Notes under the pieces: model-generated
What the model saw: the letters and a program-made list of their open reading frames with translations, nothing else
Database searches by the model: none
What the model was told of the DNA's origin: nothing
Translations under genes and position numbers: made by a program
Shown: in pieces, positions 7,931 through 14,997 of the stretch
How positions within the stretch are numbered: position 1 is the stretch's first letter
Layout of the letters: each line of letters begins with the position of its first letter
Assembly: GCA_041498975.1 (NCBI GenBank)
Contig: JBGQJI010000002.1
Coordinates: 1 to 53,331, forward strand
Reading direction: 5' to 3'
Source: Candidatus Methylomirabilis sp.
GTDB lineage: Bacteria > Methylomirabilota > Methylomirabilia > Methylomirabilales > Methylomirabilaceae
Length of the DNA stretch: 53,331 nt

Positions 7931-7957
7931 CACCTTCAGGCCCGTGTTAGGCAACAG
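7931..7957 (-). other. Truncated attC (inverse core only) of cassette 3
   Basis: TGTTGCCTAAC contains the ORF stop TAA and is complementary to the cassette start (A)TTGGGCAACA. Confidence 0.7.
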
Positions 7958-8453
7958 GGTTCAAAGAGCCGGGATCTTCAGGTGGAGCTGGACAGACCTC
8001 AACGAACACTGAGTCGGTACATGTTGCTTGGTCAGCGACCCCTAGGTGGACGCGGTCCTTGTAGCGAAGGGCGAACTCGCTCGGTGACTGGACGAACTGG
8101 AGGAGAATGCCGTAGTGCGAGGCAACTTTCTCTGCTCCTCGCTGGAAGCCCTTGGTCGTGGCGAGCGCACCGCGCACCGTCAGCGAAGGATTCGCCGCCT
8201 GAATGTCGTGAATTCTCCCAAGGAGCGTAAGCACAGACTCACCAGTAACGCGACGCTTCCAGCACTTGCACTCGATTACATGAAGCTCCGTACGAGCCTG
8301 GATGGAGACATCAATCTGGTGGGCATACCCTGATGCACCCGTGATCCGATTGATCTTCCTAGAGCGGATGTGCTCGGGTGGGAGGCCGTCCACTGATCTA
8401 ACAAGGGCGGCAACCAGATCCGATACCGTCTTCTCATACTCCGCTGAGTTCAT
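7947..8453 (-). CDS. Mrr-like PD-(D/E)XK restriction endonuclease (gene cassette)
   Basis: YE...HQIDV...VIECK...TTKGFQRGA pattern; stop codon lies inside GCCTAAC. Confidence 0.8.
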   Translation of the reverse strand: MNSAEYEKTVSDLVAALVRSVDGLPPEHIRSRKINRITGASGYAHQIDVSIQARTELHVIECKCWKRRVTGESVLTLLGRIHDIQAANPSLTVRGALATTKGFQRGAEKVASHYGILLQFVQSPSEFALRYKDRVHLGVADQATCTDSVFVEVCPAPPEDPGSLNPVA

Positions 8454-9155: not shown

Positions 9156-9293
9156 ACCTAACGACTCGGTCGCTGAGCTGAGGGAGCTGTGCTCCACATT
9201 CACAAAAATTGTTTCCTCAGCTCGGCACCGGGACACCCCAGCACACCAGACCTTGCACCGCGAGCGCCCGCCACTTCCAGCAATGCGTTAGGC
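9156..9293 (-). other. attC site of cassette 1 (138 bp)
   Basis: Inverse core GCCTAAC (9287-9293), core GTTAGGT (9156-9162), internal GAGCTGAGG/CCTCAGCTC inverted repeat. Confidence 0.8.
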
Positions 9294-9637
9294 CCGGGAT
9301 CCCCCCAATTCCAACACGAGTAAGGCCTCATCGGGCGCCGCCAGGAAGCCATGAATAGCGCCAGCCCGCTCCTCCAGCAAGCGGCCAATGCGGCGGTGCC
9401 CGCATTACCGACGGCAAGCCATATCACCTTGGGCGGCGGACCGTGGAGAAACGCGAGCTGGCGGAAGTCGTTGTCCTTGGACACGATAGTGAGACCGCGG
9501 TCGCGCGCGAACTCCCAAATGGCGTGATCGGTCTGGCCTCGGAACCCGGCAAGGTCGACGTGTTGGATCCCCGGGAAGATGGGGTGGAGGCGATCAACGA
9601 GCTTTGGGCTCAGGTTCGCATCCAACAGCAGGCTCAC
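9288..9637 (-). pseudogene. DUF5615 (PIN-like, VapC45-type) toxin, frameshifted
   Basis: LLLDANLS, TDHAIWEFA, IVSKDNDF, GPPPKVIWL. A 1-nt loss near 9381 is indicated: the alternate frame LLEERAGAIHGFLAAPDEALLVLELGGSRA* ends in the attC inverse core. Confidence 0.8.
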
Positions 9638-9861
9638 CCGACGGGCGGTGCAGTCAGGCGGCGCTCGCGGGCCGCAGCGAACGCCAGGCAGGCACGGATG
9701 TCCTCACGGGTGAGACCAGGGAAGTCCCCGAGAACCTGATCCTCCGTCATGCCCCCCGCCAGGTACTCAAGAATGTCATATACCGTGATGCGCGTGCCAC
9801 GCACACACGGCTTTCCACTCCGAATCCCGGGGGTGATCGTTATGCGGTCTTCCCAGTTCAT
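9634..9861 (-). CDS. DUF433 antitoxin
   Basis: RITITPGIRSGKPCVRGTRITVYDIL...FPGLTREDIRACLAFA. Confidence 0.92.
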   Translation of the reverse strand: MNWEDRITITPGIRSGKPCVRGTRITVYDILEYLAGGMTEDQVLGDFPGLTREDIRACLAFAAARERRLTAPPVG

Positions 9862-10178: not shown

Positions 10179-10328
10179 TTATTTTTTCCCGACGTACTTC
10201 TCCGGCGCCTGCTCGAAGGCGCGCTTGCACATCTGAGCGCAGAAATAGTAAGTCGTCCCTTGATAGACGGCGGTGGCCGCCGCCCGCTTCTCATCCACCA
10301 TCATCCCGCACACCGGATCTTTCAACAT
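10179..10328 (-). CDS. Stand-alone YHS domain protein (49 aa)
   Basis: MLKDPVCGMMV...YYFCAQMCKRAFEQAPEKY; SD GGAGG. Confidence 0.9.
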   Translation of the reverse strand: MLKDPVCGMMVDEKRAAATAVYQGTTYYFCAQMCKRAFEQAPEKYVGKK

Positions 10329-10407
10329 TACGTGCCTCCGTATTCGCCTTCCCCCACACTCTGCTCCTCTCCCCCGATGGGGAAGAGGATACAGGTGAGG
10401 GGATCCA

Positions 10408-10863
10408 CTACCACGGCTGAGACCTGGCGTACTTGCGATCAATGGCCGCTTTGATCTGTGGGATCTTCTTCCCCTGCTTGTGCATGGCATACGCCTCCAG
10501 CGTAATGTCCTGGCACATGTCTCACCCGAACGCATGCCGGTCCACGTAGCAATCGAGGTTGTTCCGATGGCCGTTTCCCTTGAAGCAACCGCAATAGCAG
10601 GGCATCCGTTCGATCAGCTCTGGCGCCTCCCTCGCTATCTCGTAGGCCCTCGCGGTCTTGCCTGTGAATAGCGCCGAAGAAAGCGTCTGAGGGCGCGGAC
10701 GCCTCGGGACCGGCTGAAGGACGCGGTCGCCCATCTCGTCCGCCCTCACGGATGATCGCCGCCCACCGATCATCCCGAGGAGAAAACCGACCACGCCTCC
10801 CATGACAGCCCGGAAGAACTGTCTACGCTCCGGTTGTGACTCGCATCCGTCCTGTCTGTTCAC
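10408..10863 (-). CDS. PCYCGC-motif protein, probable selenoprotein (in-frame UGA at 10522-10524)
   Basis: MPCYCGC...GHRNNLDCY...HAFG-UGA-DMCQDITLEAYAMHKQGKKIPQIKAAIDRKY; RRQFF twin-arginine-like signal; SD GGAGG before GTG 10863. Confidence 0.8.
10479..10517 (-). promoter_or_regulatory. Bacterial SECIS-like hairpin
   Basis: UGUGC ca GG a CA u UACGC [UGGAG] GCGUA UG CC au GCACA; upper stem begins 11 nt after the UGA. Confidence 0.7.
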
Positions 10864-10932
10864 CAGTCTTCCTCCCATGGTAGGTCTTTGAGAACCGCCT
10901 GCATGGTTCATAACAACAATGCGGTCAGATGC

Positions 10933-10980
10933 CATTGCGAGCGTGTGCGACTGAGAGATTGCTTCGCGATGCTCGCAATG
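10933..10980. repeat. REP-like palindromic element
   Basis: Perfect 10-bp inverted repeat CATTGCGAGC/GCTCGCAATG enclosing GAGATTGCTTCG. Confidence 0.6.
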
Positions 10981-11074
10981 ACGCTCCTCCGCACGGCAAT
11001 GCTCCAAAGGTCCCCCTTGCACCCTCTCCCCCAGTTGGGGGCGAGGGGCCTACATTCATGACAGGCCCAGCAAT

Positions 11075-13789
11075 CTACACATCAGTGACGGGCCGGAAGC
11101 GGCGCAACCGGAGCGCGTTGGTGACCACGGTAACCGAGGAAAGGGCCATGGCCGCGCCTGCCAGGACCGGGCTCAGCAGCACCCCGAAGAACGGGTAGAG
11201 AATGCCGGCGGCCACCGGGATCAAGATGACATTGTAGGCGAAGGCCCAGAACAGGTTCTGCTTGATGTTCCGCATCGTCTGTCTGCTCAACTGGATGGCT
11301 GTCACGACACTTCGCAGGTCGCCCCCGATCAGGGTGATGTCGGCTGCCTCCATCGCCACATCGGTACCCGTCCCGATGGCGATCCCGACATCAGCCTGTG
11401 CGAGCGCCGGCGCGTCGTTGATGCCATCGCCTACCATCGCCACCAGCTTCCCCTGTTCCTGGAGTTTCCGGACCTCGACCGCCTTGTGTTCCGGCAGAAC
11501 CTCCGCCAGGACTCGATCGATCCCCACCTGCCCGGCGATCGCCTCCGCGGTCCGACGGTTGTCACCGGTAATCATGACCACCTCGATGCCGAGGTGATGC
11601 AGAGCTGCCACAGCCGCCCTCGAGTGAGGTTTAAGAGTGTCGGCCACGCCCACAATCCCGAGGAGCTGGCCATCTGCAACAACAAACATCGGTGTCTTCC
11701 CCTCCCCAGAGAGCATCTCGGCCCGGTCGCCGATCCCTGTGAGGCCAATCACTCTCTCCTGCATCAGGCGAAGATTGCCAAGGAGAATCTCTTTTCCCTC
11801 CACAACCGCCCTGATCCCATATCCAGGAATCGCCTTGAACTCCTGAGGTCCGGCCAAGTCGAGCCCTTCCTCCTTCGCGCGATCGATGATCGCCTGTCCA
11901 AGCGGATGCTCGGATCCTCTTTCCGCCGATGCGGCAAGCCGAAGCAGCTCACGCTGAGCCGGGTTTAGGGTTTCGGGTTTCGAGTATCGGGTCAAATTCG
12001 ACGGAGAACTCGAAACTCCAAACTCGAAACTCGAAACGATGTCGGTGACCGATGGTTGACCGAGGGTCAGCGTACCGGTCTTATCGAACACGACCACGTT
12101 CACCTGATAGGCGCGCTCCAGGCTCTCGGCATTCTTGATCAGGACGCCATATTCCGCCCCCTTTCCGGTCCCCACCATGATCGACGTGGGGGTGGCCAGA
12201 CCGAGCGCGCATGGACAGGCGATCACCAGAACAGCGACGCAGTTGGAAAGAGCAAACAGGAACGCCGGCTGTGGTCCGAAGAGGAGCCAGACCCCGAACG
12301 TCACGGCCGCGGCGGCGATGACGATCGGCACGAATACCCCTGCGATCTTGTCCACCAGCCGCTGGATGGGGGCCTTCGACCCCTGCGCCTGCTCCACAAG
12401 CCGGATGATCTGGGCCAGGGCTGTCTCCCGCCCGACCCTGGTCGCCTCGAACCTGAAGCTGCCGGTCTTGTTCAGGGTTGCGCCAATGACCTCGTCCCCC
12501 GGGCTTTTCTCCACCGGAAGGCTTTCCCCGGTCAGCATCGACTCGTCGAGCGCCGATCGCCCGTCACGGATGATCCCGTCCACCGGCACCTTTTCTCCCG
12601 GCCGGACCATGACGAGGTCGCCCACGCGAACGTCCTCTATCGGGATGTCTTGCTCCAGCCCTCCGTGGATCACCCGCGCGGTCCTCGGCTGGAGCCCCAT
12701 GAGCCTCTTGATCGCCTCAGAGGTCTTGCCCTTCGCCTTCGCCTCGAGCCAACGACCCATGATGATCAGGGTCATGAGGATAGCCGCGGTGTCATAGTAG
12801 GTCATCGCCTCCATCCCCTTGGGGGCGATGGCGGCGGGAAAGAAGGTGAGGGCAACACTGTACAGATAGGCCGCATTGGTCCCGACCGAGACCAGGGTGT
12901 TCATATCGGCAGTCCTGTGTTTCAGCGTCGCCCAGAATCCCCGGTGAAATTGCCAGCCGACCCAGAACTGGACAGGCGTGGTAAGTAGGAAGAGCAGGAA
13001 GGGGTTGGACAGGACCGTCGGCGCCCATGGGAACAGGTCGGGAAAGCTTCCCAGTAGGACCGGAAGACTCAGGGCGGCCCCGACCAGGAGCTTGGTGCGA
13101 AGGAGGCGGACCTCCGCGTCCCTGGCCGCGCCTTCATGATCGATCAGTTCGGATGGGCGAGCCACCTCGGGTACGCGATACCCGGCGTCTTCGATCGCTT
13201 TCCGCAACTCGGCCGGCTGGACGACCGAGGCAAGGTAGGACACCGTCGCCCGCTCCACGGCGAAGTTCACGGAGGCGGAGACGACCCCCGGGGTCTCCAG
13301 CAGCGCGCGCTCGATCCGCTGCACGCAGGAGGCGCACGACATCCCCTGGATCGGCAGGACCGCCTCATCCACTCCTGCCTTGTAGCCCAGTTCCCGGATC
13401 TGCTTGATGAACCGATCGACTGTGATGATGTCAGGGTCATACAGGATCGTGGCCTGCTGCGTGGCGAAGTTGACGCTGACCTCTTTGACCCCAGGCAGCT
13501 CCGAGAGGCCGGATTCGATTGTGGCCACGCATGAGGCGCAACTCATCCCGCGGATCGGGATCTCGATGCGCTGGGAAGCCCGGCCCCTTCGGGACAAGGG
13601 AGGGGCAATCTCCACCGAGTGAGGCGACGCCCTCGGTTGTGGAGACCCGTCCACGTACTGCGCGGGCGACTTGTCGAATGCTTCCTTGCAGCTTGACGCA
13701 CAAAAGTAATAATCCACGCCGTTGTAGCGGCTGGTCCCGGCCGCCTCCTCCGGCAACACCTCCATCCCACAGATCGGATCTATCGGCAT
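11075..13789 (-). CDS. copA: Copper-translocating P1B-type ATPase with N-terminal YHS and two HMA domains
   Basis: DPICGM (YHS), 2x [41 protein letters not shown] and MxxSS Cu(I) signatures. Confidence 0.96.
11960..12037. repeat. Inverted heptamer repeat array inside copA
   Basis: GGGTTTA/GGGTTTC/GGGTTTC/GAGTATC facing GAAACTC/CAAACTC/GAAACTC. Confidence 0.75.
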
Positions 13790-14997
13790 GAACAGTCCTC
13801 AGGATCTTTCGATTTTCCGGGCATCAACGCTTGAGGATAGCGGGCGCCCAAGAGGAGAGCCAAGGGCCTCGGAATTCCCGCCCATGCACGGTCAGCGAAC
13901 GATCGGTAGCTTTTCTCTCCCATCAACACCCTGCGGAAGTGATCGATCATCCCACGGCGGCGCTTGAGCACCTTGAACCAGAGCCAGGGGAACCGATGGG
14001 CCTGCCGGCTGAGTTCGCCGGCAGCCTCCAGTTCCGGTGTGATCTCGGTTGAAATGGCTCGGTCATAGCACATGAGGTCACCGCCATCGTCGGCCGCCTG
14101 TAAAATCCCTCTGGCCGCCAGTTGGCCGCTCTGGATGGCGTAGTAGATCCCTTCTCCCAGAAACGGATCGACCAGCGCCGCCGCATCACCCGCCAGCAAT
14201 GCGCGCCCCCGATGAAGCGGCCCGCCGCTGGATGGGTGAAGTGGAATCAGCGCCCCATGAGTGCGCGCCCCCCTTCGCTCGCCGAAGCCCCCCGAGCCGA
14301 GGAAAGCGTCCAGGCAACTTGACGCGTGCTTCGCTGCCGTGCGGCCGACCATCACACCGACAGAGGCAACCCCACGCTTCGGAAAAGCCCAGCAATAGCC
14401 GCCTGGGGCGCGACCCACATCGATCACCACCCGGCCCTGAAGCGCGGTCTCAGCATAGCCCGCTAGTGGAAGCTCTCCATCCAGCCCCATGGCCCTCGGC
14501 CGCGGCCGACCTGGAAATAGATCTCGGGCAACAACCCCGGACGCCCCATCGGCCCCGACCAAAAAATCGGCGATCTCCGTCCTCCCGTCGAGATCGACCT
14601 CGACCCGGCCGCCCACCTCCCTGACAGCCCGAACAGCCTGCCCATCTTGGAATATGGCGCCAGCCTCAACGGCTTTGATGCAGAGCGCCTGATCGAACCG
14701 ATCGCGCCACACCATGTGGGCCATTGGCTCGGAGAAAGTCGCCTGAATCGGACTGCGGCCACGGCAGGTGAAAGTGAGCCCGGTTATCTGCTCTTCAACC
14801 AGGTCGGCCAGATCACACTTCAGCAGGTCCGCCACTCGCCTGGACAAGCAGCCGCCGCAGGCCTTATAGCGCGGCAGACGCCGACGCTCCAGAAGGAGGA
14901 CCTTGCCGCCACTACGCGCCAGCCCATGCGCAGCGGTAGCTCCCGCCGGCCCGCCGCCCACGACGATGGCATCGTATCGCACCGACCGCTCCGCCAC
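13780..14997 (-). CDS. Geranylgeranyl reductase family FAD oxidoreductase
   Basis: [46 protein letters not shown]. Confidence 0.88.

Follow-up and report, generated by a model that had tools for sequence, protein, structure and literature searches.

The window analyzed here, a 53,331-nucleotide stretch of Candidatus Methylomirabilis sp. (GenBank assembly GCA_041498975.1, contig JBGQJI010000002.1, positions 1 to 53,331), carries a gene at 10405..10863 whose product is very likely a genuine selenocysteine (Sec)-containing member of the described CYCXC / OS_HP4 / PCYCGC family (NF041379, PF13798) in this genus. We conclude with high confidence that its in-frame UGA, codon 114, is read as Sec, on the basis of the conservation of the UGA in relatives, the existence of Cys homologues, the Sec machinery of the genome, and a conserved hairpin downstream of the codon. 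An earlier note on this DNA had read the in-frame UGA as Sec in a PCYCGC protein, and the same four lines of evidence support that reading. The function that we propose for the protein, handling of Cu(I) outside the cytoplasm, is more tentative and is weighed in the Discussion. Coordinates are those of the window, and the genes and RNA elements described in it lie on the reverse strand.

Results

A CYCXC-family frame that runs through a UGA

Under translation table 11, the open reading frame (ORF) at 10522..11022 ends in ...PCYCGCFKGNGHRNNLDCYVDRHAFG (also given as ...MPCYCGCFKGNGHRNNLDCYVDRHAFG) at the TGA at 10524-10522. When this TGA is read as Sec (U), the frame continues for 37 more codons (DMCQDITLEAYAMHKQGKKIPQIKAAIDRKYARSQPW) as far as a TAG at 10407-10405; the earlier note had described a stop at UGA 10522 with 37 codons on to TAG, and retranslation reproduced that description exactly. 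The coding sequence (10405..10863) comprises 151 codons, including UGA-114, from a GTG at 10863-10861 to the TAG, and the full product with Sec is a 151-aa precursor. GTG 10863 is the likely start codon, chosen because close relatives without the upstream ATG retain the V-N-R-Q-D sequence and because a Shine-Dalgarno-like GGAGGA (10870..10875, found by inspection), which presumably acts as the ribosome-binding site, lies 6 nt upstream of it. The alternative start is ATG 10878. The Sec codon (10522..10524) provides the first position of U-D-M-C, a UxxC motif, within H110-A-F-G-U114-D-M-C117 (H-x3-U-x2-C). Upstream of it, at 10585..10599, sequence and homologue alignment place the C-Y-C-G-C family signature (C89, C91, and C93), and the 37 codons that follow the UGA (10408..10521) encode two C-terminal helices bearing C117 and the segments Q-D-I-T-L-[ED]-A-Y and I-K-A-A-I-D-R-K-Y.

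The protein scores above the cut-offs of both family profiles. NCBIfam NF041379 (OS_HP4_CYCXC, an equivalog) gives 123.7 bits (cut-off 90) for residues 58-145 and profile positions 2-89 of 90, and Pfam PF13798 (PCYCGC) gives 55.3 bits against a cut-off of 25 in a match that crosses the TGA (residues 123-199 of the long-ORF translation, with U at 167). It also carries both motifs of the family, C-Y-C-x-C and [U/C]-x-x-C, the latter as U114-D-M-C117.

Sec and Cys at the UGA column

The UGA is conserved among relatives of the gene. Searching 61 related genomes found the gene in 43, with 48 genomic matches, 47 of which contain a TGA; the exception, from genome G025, has none. Two of these matches come from unpublished genomes (G027 and G054), on which none of the other results depends, and without them a TGA is present in 45 of 46. 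Within a set of 20 loci that includes the window's own, all have the TGA at the identical column. Forty loci were fetched (L007-L046), and a motif search recovered the frame in 36 of them, 35 with TGA and one, L032 from G025, with TGC. Three of the four loci that it missed have TGA at the column with Met in place of His at position -4, and the fourth, L044, yielded no frame. Across the fetched relatives, TGA stands at the H-x3-U-x2-C column in 38 of 40 and TGC in one, which is the first Cys of H-x3-C-x2-C, where the earlier note had expected it. Seven named Bacillales/Bacillota records (Bacillus sp., Fictibacillus, Ammoniphilus, Schinkia, and metagenome-assembled genomes [MAGs]) have TGA at this column as well. 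The tail encoded after the UGA is conserved at the protein level in every relative.

Cys homologues are abundant. A library of 1.84 billion cluster representatives contains 1517 proteins that match at E ≤ 0.001, and among the best 150 of these the column holds Cys in 127, Trp in two, Asp in one, and Ser in one, while 19 proteins end exactly there; the family thus includes Sec/Cys pairs, with Sec the less common form. Together with the TGC of L032, these representatives supply the natural Cys that the earlier note had anticipated at the UGA column, and the gene shows the combination typical of a bacterial selenoprotein, an in-frame UGA conserved in orthologues together with Cys homologues. The same 150 representatives retain C89, C91, and C93 in 149, 150, and 149 cases, respectively. 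The two Trp-bearing representatives may be gene calls in which TGA was read as Trp, which would make them hidden Sec forms.

Assembly error does not account for the TGA, because contigs from three further metagenome runs (X1, X2, and X4) cover 10522-10524 with no difference listed. Record 7 of X1 and record 14 of X2 have no other letters over the TGA, and record 21 of X4 is from a diverged strain with 19 differences. Manual comparison with the reading frame showed that the differences confined to X4 at 10441-10482, downstream of the UGA, either occupy third codon positions or yield residues known in relatives (H128Y and Q136E). The last two codons also contain differences, at 10409-10410, in X1 and X4. 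The three are not fully independent confirmations, because one run may be the window's own source. An RNA run (X22) has contigs at 90-95% likeness over the downstream YHS gene and intergenic repeats only, and it is uninformative on expression.

Public gene calls lose the end of this protein. Among the 74 closest public protein entries, 33 cover exactly 75% of the query (residues 1-113, up to the UGA), and 25 of those 33 are 113 aa long; leaving P0010 aside, the 33 include all eight matches of 73-99% identity. Lengths of 105-125 aa account for 58 of the 74. Because gene callers cut at the UGA, public protein sets lack one invariant Cys and the final two helices. The description of the gene as unannotated in the earlier note is accurate insofar as the gene call of this genome and most public calls stop at the UGA, but it does not extend to the family, which is already curated (NF041379 and review tables).

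The genome has the machinery that Sec insertion requires. Its assembly (G000), a MAG of 241 contigs that is 84.9% complete, encodes SelA (505.3 bits in a profile search), a SelB wing domain (73.8 bits) within a 726-codon frame, SelD (398.6 bits; contig C199, 1054-1980, reverse strand; L003), and, adjoining SelB on contig C73, a 95-nt tRNA-Sec(tca). The selA, selB, selC, and selD genes by which the earlier note would have its reading judged are accordingly all represented, as SelA, SelB, SelD, and tRNA-Sec. The selD gene has an in-frame TGA of its own at the canonical G-A-G-U-A-C-K site, followed by a 7-bp hairpin that begins 8 nt after the TGA, and the SelD of this genome is probably itself a selenoprotein.

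A conserved hairpin downstream of the UGA

A stem-loop with G in its apical loop, resembling a selenocysteine insertion sequence (SECIS), follows the UGA at 10479..10517, nt 8-46 counted from the U of the UGA, as placed by minimum free energy (MFE) folding and alignment. When the 60 nt that begin at the UGA are folded to the MFE (-16.6 kcal/mol), a lower stem pairs nt 8-12 with 42-46, the pairs G15-C39 and G16-C38 begin 11 nt after the UGA, and the upper hairpin consists of C18-A19-U20 paired with A35-U36-G37, a bulged U21, a stem formed by A22-U26 and G30-U34, and a GGA loop. The G-rich apical loop lies about 23 nt downstream of the UGA. The conserved core stem (nt 19-25/31-37) lies at 10488-10506, and the apical loop, around nt 26-30, at 10495-10499.

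The evidential weight of the hairpin comes from its conservation across relatives, not from the single-sequence fold. In 36 homologues aligned gap-free from the UGA, the core stem has standard pairs in 76.2% of cells, compared with 18.6-51.9% when the partner is slid by one to three columns, and pairs 20-36, 21-35, and 22-34 show compensatory changes on both sides. The covariation score of 0.219 exceeds that of shuffled alignments (0.123 ± 0.014) and was reached by none of 500. An RNAalifold consensus retains the core stem at 21-25/31-35, the hairpin is kept in all four subgroups, and the loop has G28 in every sequence and G27 in at least 90% of them. Among 20 genus-level sequences, nt 7-35 after the UGA contain only two variable sites, as against 31 variable third positions in the 33 codons before it; this suppressed synonymous variation over the hairpin is the signature of an RNA constraint laid over the coding one.

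Several observations weigh against the hairpin as a SECIS element and against Sec decoding more generally. The MFE hairpin by itself improves only slightly on chance (z = -1.72), with equally good folds in 9 of 200 shuffles. Two of five covariation measures are not above shuffles, namely the number of pairs with both-sided changes (3 versus 2.7, reached by 377 of 500) and the number of further pair types (6 versus 6.2, reached by 427 of 500), and covariation scores are inflated because the sequences are both related and coding, such that kin can beat shuffles without any structure. The register of the hairpin is off by one nucleotide in subgroup D (L038-L042), and an Rfam scan of 10300-10700 returned no SECIS family, only four rows at chance level (E ≥ 2). 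Beyond the genus, the bulged U is not maintained, which curtails the comparison with the SECIS of Escherichia coli fdhF made in the earlier note: the 11-nt offset, the G in the loop, and the conserved stem hold, but the bulge is a feature of this genus. Finally, the Sec genes sit on contigs other than that of the CYCXC gene, which is explained by the fragmentation and incompleteness of the MAG.

The Cys form of L032 (556-618) still has the downstream hairpin, and its congener L033 (from G029) has TGA. Because the hairpin persists behind the TGC, the sequences suggest a recent Sec-to-Cys replacement that left a fossil SECIS.

Alternatives to Sec decoding

Could the TGA be a nonsense mutation, a pseudogene lesion, or a sequencing or assembly error in a Cys-type PCYCGC gene? 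The prevalence of Cys at the column in the best 150 representatives and the public gene calls that end at the TGA would agree with such a lesion, but a chance event of this kind does not fit a TGA that recurs in 38 of 40 relatives over several genera and again in Bacillales records, nor downstream stretches of 33-37 codons that are conserved as protein. The contigs of three other runs are identical at the TGA, the Sec machinery is complete, and the named isolate genomes with TGA speak against an artefact of a single assembler, all of which makes this explanation exceedingly improbable. Only a little more credible, and still very improbable, is that the UGA terminates translation, that the 113-residue product is functional, and that the stretch downstream is either a separate small ORF or nothing more than an RNA element. 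A 36-aa ORF from ATG 10518 does exist, and the nucleotides just after the UGA are conserved, as this explanation would have it. This ATG is, however, not conserved, relatives having D-I-C, R-I-C, or T-V-C at this point, and the full-length Pfam and NCBIfam profiles align across the UGA into the tail, in which C117 is invariant. Moreover, the Cys forms are single polypeptides, and the AlphaFold2 (AF2) model packs the tail helices into the domain with a predicted local distance difference test (pLDDT) score of 96-99.

Domain architecture and predicted export

The N-terminal export region (residues 1-40; 10744..10863) combines a twin-arginine motif, a hydrophobic helix at about residues 18-34, and a linker of low model confidence. 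Residues 12-18 are E-R-R-Q-F-F-R (RRQFF is 13-17 counted from GTG 10863, with RR at 10822-10827), followed by a hydrophobic stretch, and the pattern RR-x-hydrophobic-hydrophobic-[RK], present in 20 of 20 loci (L007-L026), fits the consensus of the twin-arginine translocation (Tat) pathway. The genome encodes TatC in two pieces at contig ends (C157, 5210-5536, and C71, 11448-11720), probably one gene split by assembly. Two results count against a Tat signal: no Tat-signal hidden Markov model (HMM) matched in Pfam (E ≤ 0.01) or NCBIfam (E ≤ 1), and among the 36 homologues, subgroups B and C have plain hydrophobic N-terminal anchors without RR. The Tat-like signal of the earlier note therefore stands as a motif shared by all 20 close relatives in a genome with TatC, but not as an HMM match. 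From the sequences, it is reasonably probable that the domain is located outside the cytoplasm, and the Tat route is plausible for this genus only, because subgroups B and C lack the twin arginine.

The AF2 model, built from an alignment of 36 sequences (mean pLDDT 76.1, predicted template modelling score 0.60), consists of a helix at residues 12-33, a linker at 33-50 with pLDDT below 50, and a helical domain spanning about 60-150, in which blocks of 10 residues average 85-99; the tail helices, 115-129 and 134-148, have block pLDDT of 96-99. Invariant in the 36 aligned homologues are A77, C89, C91, C93, H99, C105, H110, U/C114, C117, and I141, a set that includes eight soft ligands (five Cys, two His, and Sec) arranged as C89-x-C91-x-C93, H99, C105, H110, and U114-x-x-C117. 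In some Sec forms H110 is replaced by Met (M-S-F-G-U or M-G-F-G-U), and a His/Met swap might be expected at a Cu(I) site. These His-to-Met forms (L043, L045, L046, L069, L070, and L072-L076, including Bacillales) have a proline-rich T-P-T-P C-terminal tail.

Structural comparison yielded leads only. A search of PDB sequences with the family profile gave no match at E ≤ 1, Foldseek against the PDB gave none at E ≤ 0.001, and a VIA structural comparison gave none at Z ≥ 8. The top VIA row, a designed zinc-bound helical dimer, has a nonsignificant Z of 6.0 and serves as a lead only. The best natural structural neighbor is the CcmH periplasmic domain 2hl7 (Foldseek E = 1.5, target-normalized TM score 0.53), which in VIA has Z 5.1 and a root-mean-square deviation of 4.1 over 69 residues, below the level that is meaningful for small helical bundles.

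Genomic context

In the window, the CYCXC gene is flanked upstream by a gene for a 904-aa CopA-type P1B ATPase (11075..13789), with an N-terminal YHS domain, two HMA domains, E1-E2 ATPase and HAD domains, and a CPC motif, and downstream by a gene for a 53-aa YHS-domain protein (10179..10340; PF04945, 62.1 bits) without a signal sequence. The YHS gene lies 64 nt downstream of the CYCXC gene here, and in L018 and L024 just a few codons separate the two. Its product is a Cys form that scores 18.8 bits with NF041384 against a cut-off of 70, and the gene has no in-frame TGA. Across L007-L026, a YHS gene is directly downstream of CYCXC in 18 of 20 loci, and the C-terminus of the ATPase is within 1.5 kb upstream in 17 of 20. 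The copper regulon that the earlier note proposed is thus borne out insofar as the arrangement of the gene beside those for a CopA-type ATPase and a YHS protein is conserved, but not in respect of a regulator or a copper response.

The neighbors are different in a wider set of 19 loci from other genera. L051 and L052 have DtxR/FeoA, FeoB, and a large Fer4_5 protein; L053 and L054 have 4Fe-4S/NrfD; and L055 and L056 have Fer4_5, EB_dh, a P19-like Fe2+ transport protein, and a molybdopterin enzyme. Distant paralogues of subgroup D in other genera of the order (L057, L058, and L060-L063) adjoin genes for cytochrome c, COX2/cupredoxin-cytochrome c fusions, Caa3_CtaG, CusB-like/OEP proteins, and a CDF transporter. 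What CYCXC neighborhoods share is the handling of metals and respiratory proteins outside the cytoplasm, and the association with copper is specific to this genus and subgroup D.

Other features surround these genes. A geranylgeranyl-reductase-like (GGR-like) FAD-dependent oxidoreductase (13780-14997) may be cotranslated with the CopA-type gene, because it ends 10 nt inside the start of the ATPase. Downstream of the YHS gene, at 9200-9861 and 7947-8453, are a DUF433/DUF5615 pair, which is toxin-antitoxin-like, and a protein with an Mrr-type restriction endonuclease domain. Short palindromic repeats lie in the spacers on both sides of the CYCXC gene at 10932-10983, 11019-11051, and 10366-10400, with four, six, and two further copies elsewhere in the genome, respectively; they show depth spikes and loose ends in metagenome contigs and look like repetitive extragenic palindromic (REP)-type elements. 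For pmoB (PF04744), the genome gave no match, a result that carries no weight given that the control matched nowhere and the MAG is 84.9% complete.

Discussion

The data suggest how this gene would be decoded and what its product might do. SelB carrying Sec-tRNA(Sec) would bind the hairpin that starts just after UGA-114, Sec would be inserted at codon 114, and translation would continue for 37 codons to the TAG to give the 151-aa precursor. The N-terminal twin-arginine signal or anchor would then place the helical domain of about 95 residues on the periplasmic side, where the domain could take Cu(I) released by CopA and buffer it or hand it on, with Sec acting as a high-affinity ligand of low pKa or as the reactive half of a selenenylsulfide. 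Periplasmic metal handling is suggested by the eight invariant soft ligands, and we tentatively propose that the CYCXC protein acts together with the CopA-type pump to bind Cu(I), or to pass it on, outside the cytoplasm, a role that we rate as possible. A more elaborate version, which we regard as rather unlikely in its full detail, is that a Tat-exported, Sec-based periplasmic Cu(I) acceptor serves as the dedicated outside partner of CopA, with the small cytoplasmic YHS protein as its counterpart inside, and that it would supply or buffer copper for cuproenzymes that face the periplasm. The gene neighborhoods give reasons for caution. Three of the 20 close loci (L010, L025, and L026) have no CopA within 1.5 kb upstream, two of these (L025 and L026) also have no YHS gene, and in other genera the genes beside CYCXC are iron or redox genes instead of copper genes.

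The principal competitor to copper handling is a role as a periplasmic thiol/selenol-disulfide oxidoreductase, in which UxxC would form a redox-active selenenylsulfide and, in the manner of CcmH or TlpA, keep the Cys residues of cytochrome c or of copper sites reduced. Most UxxC/CxxU selenoproteins are redox proteins, according to the 2007 paper on Olavius. The CcmH domain 2hl7 is the best natural structural neighbor, and the distant paralogues adjoin genes for cytochrome c, COX2, and CtaG. The fold matches, however, are below the meaningful level for small helical bundles; eight invariant Cys, His, and Sec residues exceed what a redox pair needs; and the His-to-Met replacement at position -4, together with CopA and YHS as neighbors, fits metal ligation better, leaving the oxidoreductase role somewhat unlikely. 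Next in order comes the idea that the Cys/His/Sec set holds a structural or redox cofactor, such as Zn sites or an Fe-S cluster, that is loaded before export, with the copper link being indirect. This idea would explain the Tat route, because the cofactor would be inserted before export, and Tat substrates are often exported folded with their cofactors. Eight ligands could make two tetrahedral sites, FeoAB, DtxR, Fe2+ transport, and Fe-S proteins are neighbors in other genera, and the nonsignificant top VIA match is zinc-bound. Yet several subgroups have no twin arginine, neither sequence nor fold searches matched the protein to a known Fe-S or zinc family, and its operon partners in this genus are of the copper type. 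We consider a preloaded Zn or Fe-S cofactor quite unlikely.

Because CYCXC is already a curated selenoprotein family, the gene adds little as a discovery. The selenoprotein family itself is known and catalogued: a 2022 review lists "Hypothetical protein OS_HP4, UxxC" (PMC9312934), and a table in a 2026 review gives UxxC for the CYCXC family, citing the 2007 Olavius paper. YHS proteins are another family listed among selenoproteins. The name OS_HP4 is absent from the main texts of the 2007 Olavius paper and the 2008 GOS paper. The literature searched contained no functional study of PCYCGC, PF13798, CYCXC, or OS_HP4, and searches for selenoproteins together with Methylomirabilis, or with a YHS domain and copper, likewise found none. 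In one report, a Parageobacillus PCYCGC protein is called a lipoprotein of unknown function and is found beside an iron-binding protein (PMC13068155). Three local features did not turn up in print in our literature searches: the order CopA-CYCXC-YHS in Ca. Methylomirabilis, the twin-arginine signal, and the conservation of the hairpin. The analysis is of consequence in three respects. Gene callers still cut CYCXC selenoprotein genes at the UGA, a systematic truncation in public gene calls. The gene order, the twin-arginine signal, and the eight ligands together amount to a testable copper-handling hypothesis for a family without an assigned function. The gene also indicates that Sec serves Ca. 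Methylomirabilis beyond classical redox enzymes. If the periplasmic acceptor role were true, the PCYCGC/CYCXC family would gain its first functional assignment, and Sec would be a copper ligand in a trafficking protein.

Comparison with known systems helps to delimit what this protein is. With the CYCXC family of NF041379 and PF13798 it shares C-Y-C-x-C, UxxC at the Sec/Cys column, and the occurrence of both Sec and Cys forms, and no defining feature differs. Its hairpin resembles the SECIS of E. coli fdhF in its placement about 11 nt after the UGA, in the G of its loop, and, within this genus, in a 5′-side bulged U. The E. coli element has three pairs between bulge and loop and a GGUC loop, whereas four to five pairs and a GGA/UGGAU loop are found here, and the bulge is missing in other subgroups. 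The YHS (seleno)protein family NF041384 is relevant because a YHS protein is the conserved downstream neighbor of CYCXC, but that neighbor is a Cys form here and is of another fold and family. The CcmH periplasmic domain (2hl7 and 2kw0) is likewise a small extramembrane helical bundle that carries an xCxxC-type motif. Its match scores lack significance, its sequence is not similar, and its ligand set is different, making CcmH a lead rather than a family to which the protein belongs. The proposed role matches that of the periplasmic copper chaperones CusF, PCuAC, and Sco, which cooperate with copper exporters and also have soft ligands outside the cytoplasm and a gene beside a copper pump. No relation to these chaperones in sequence or fold was found for the CYCXC protein, which is all-helical and uses Sec.

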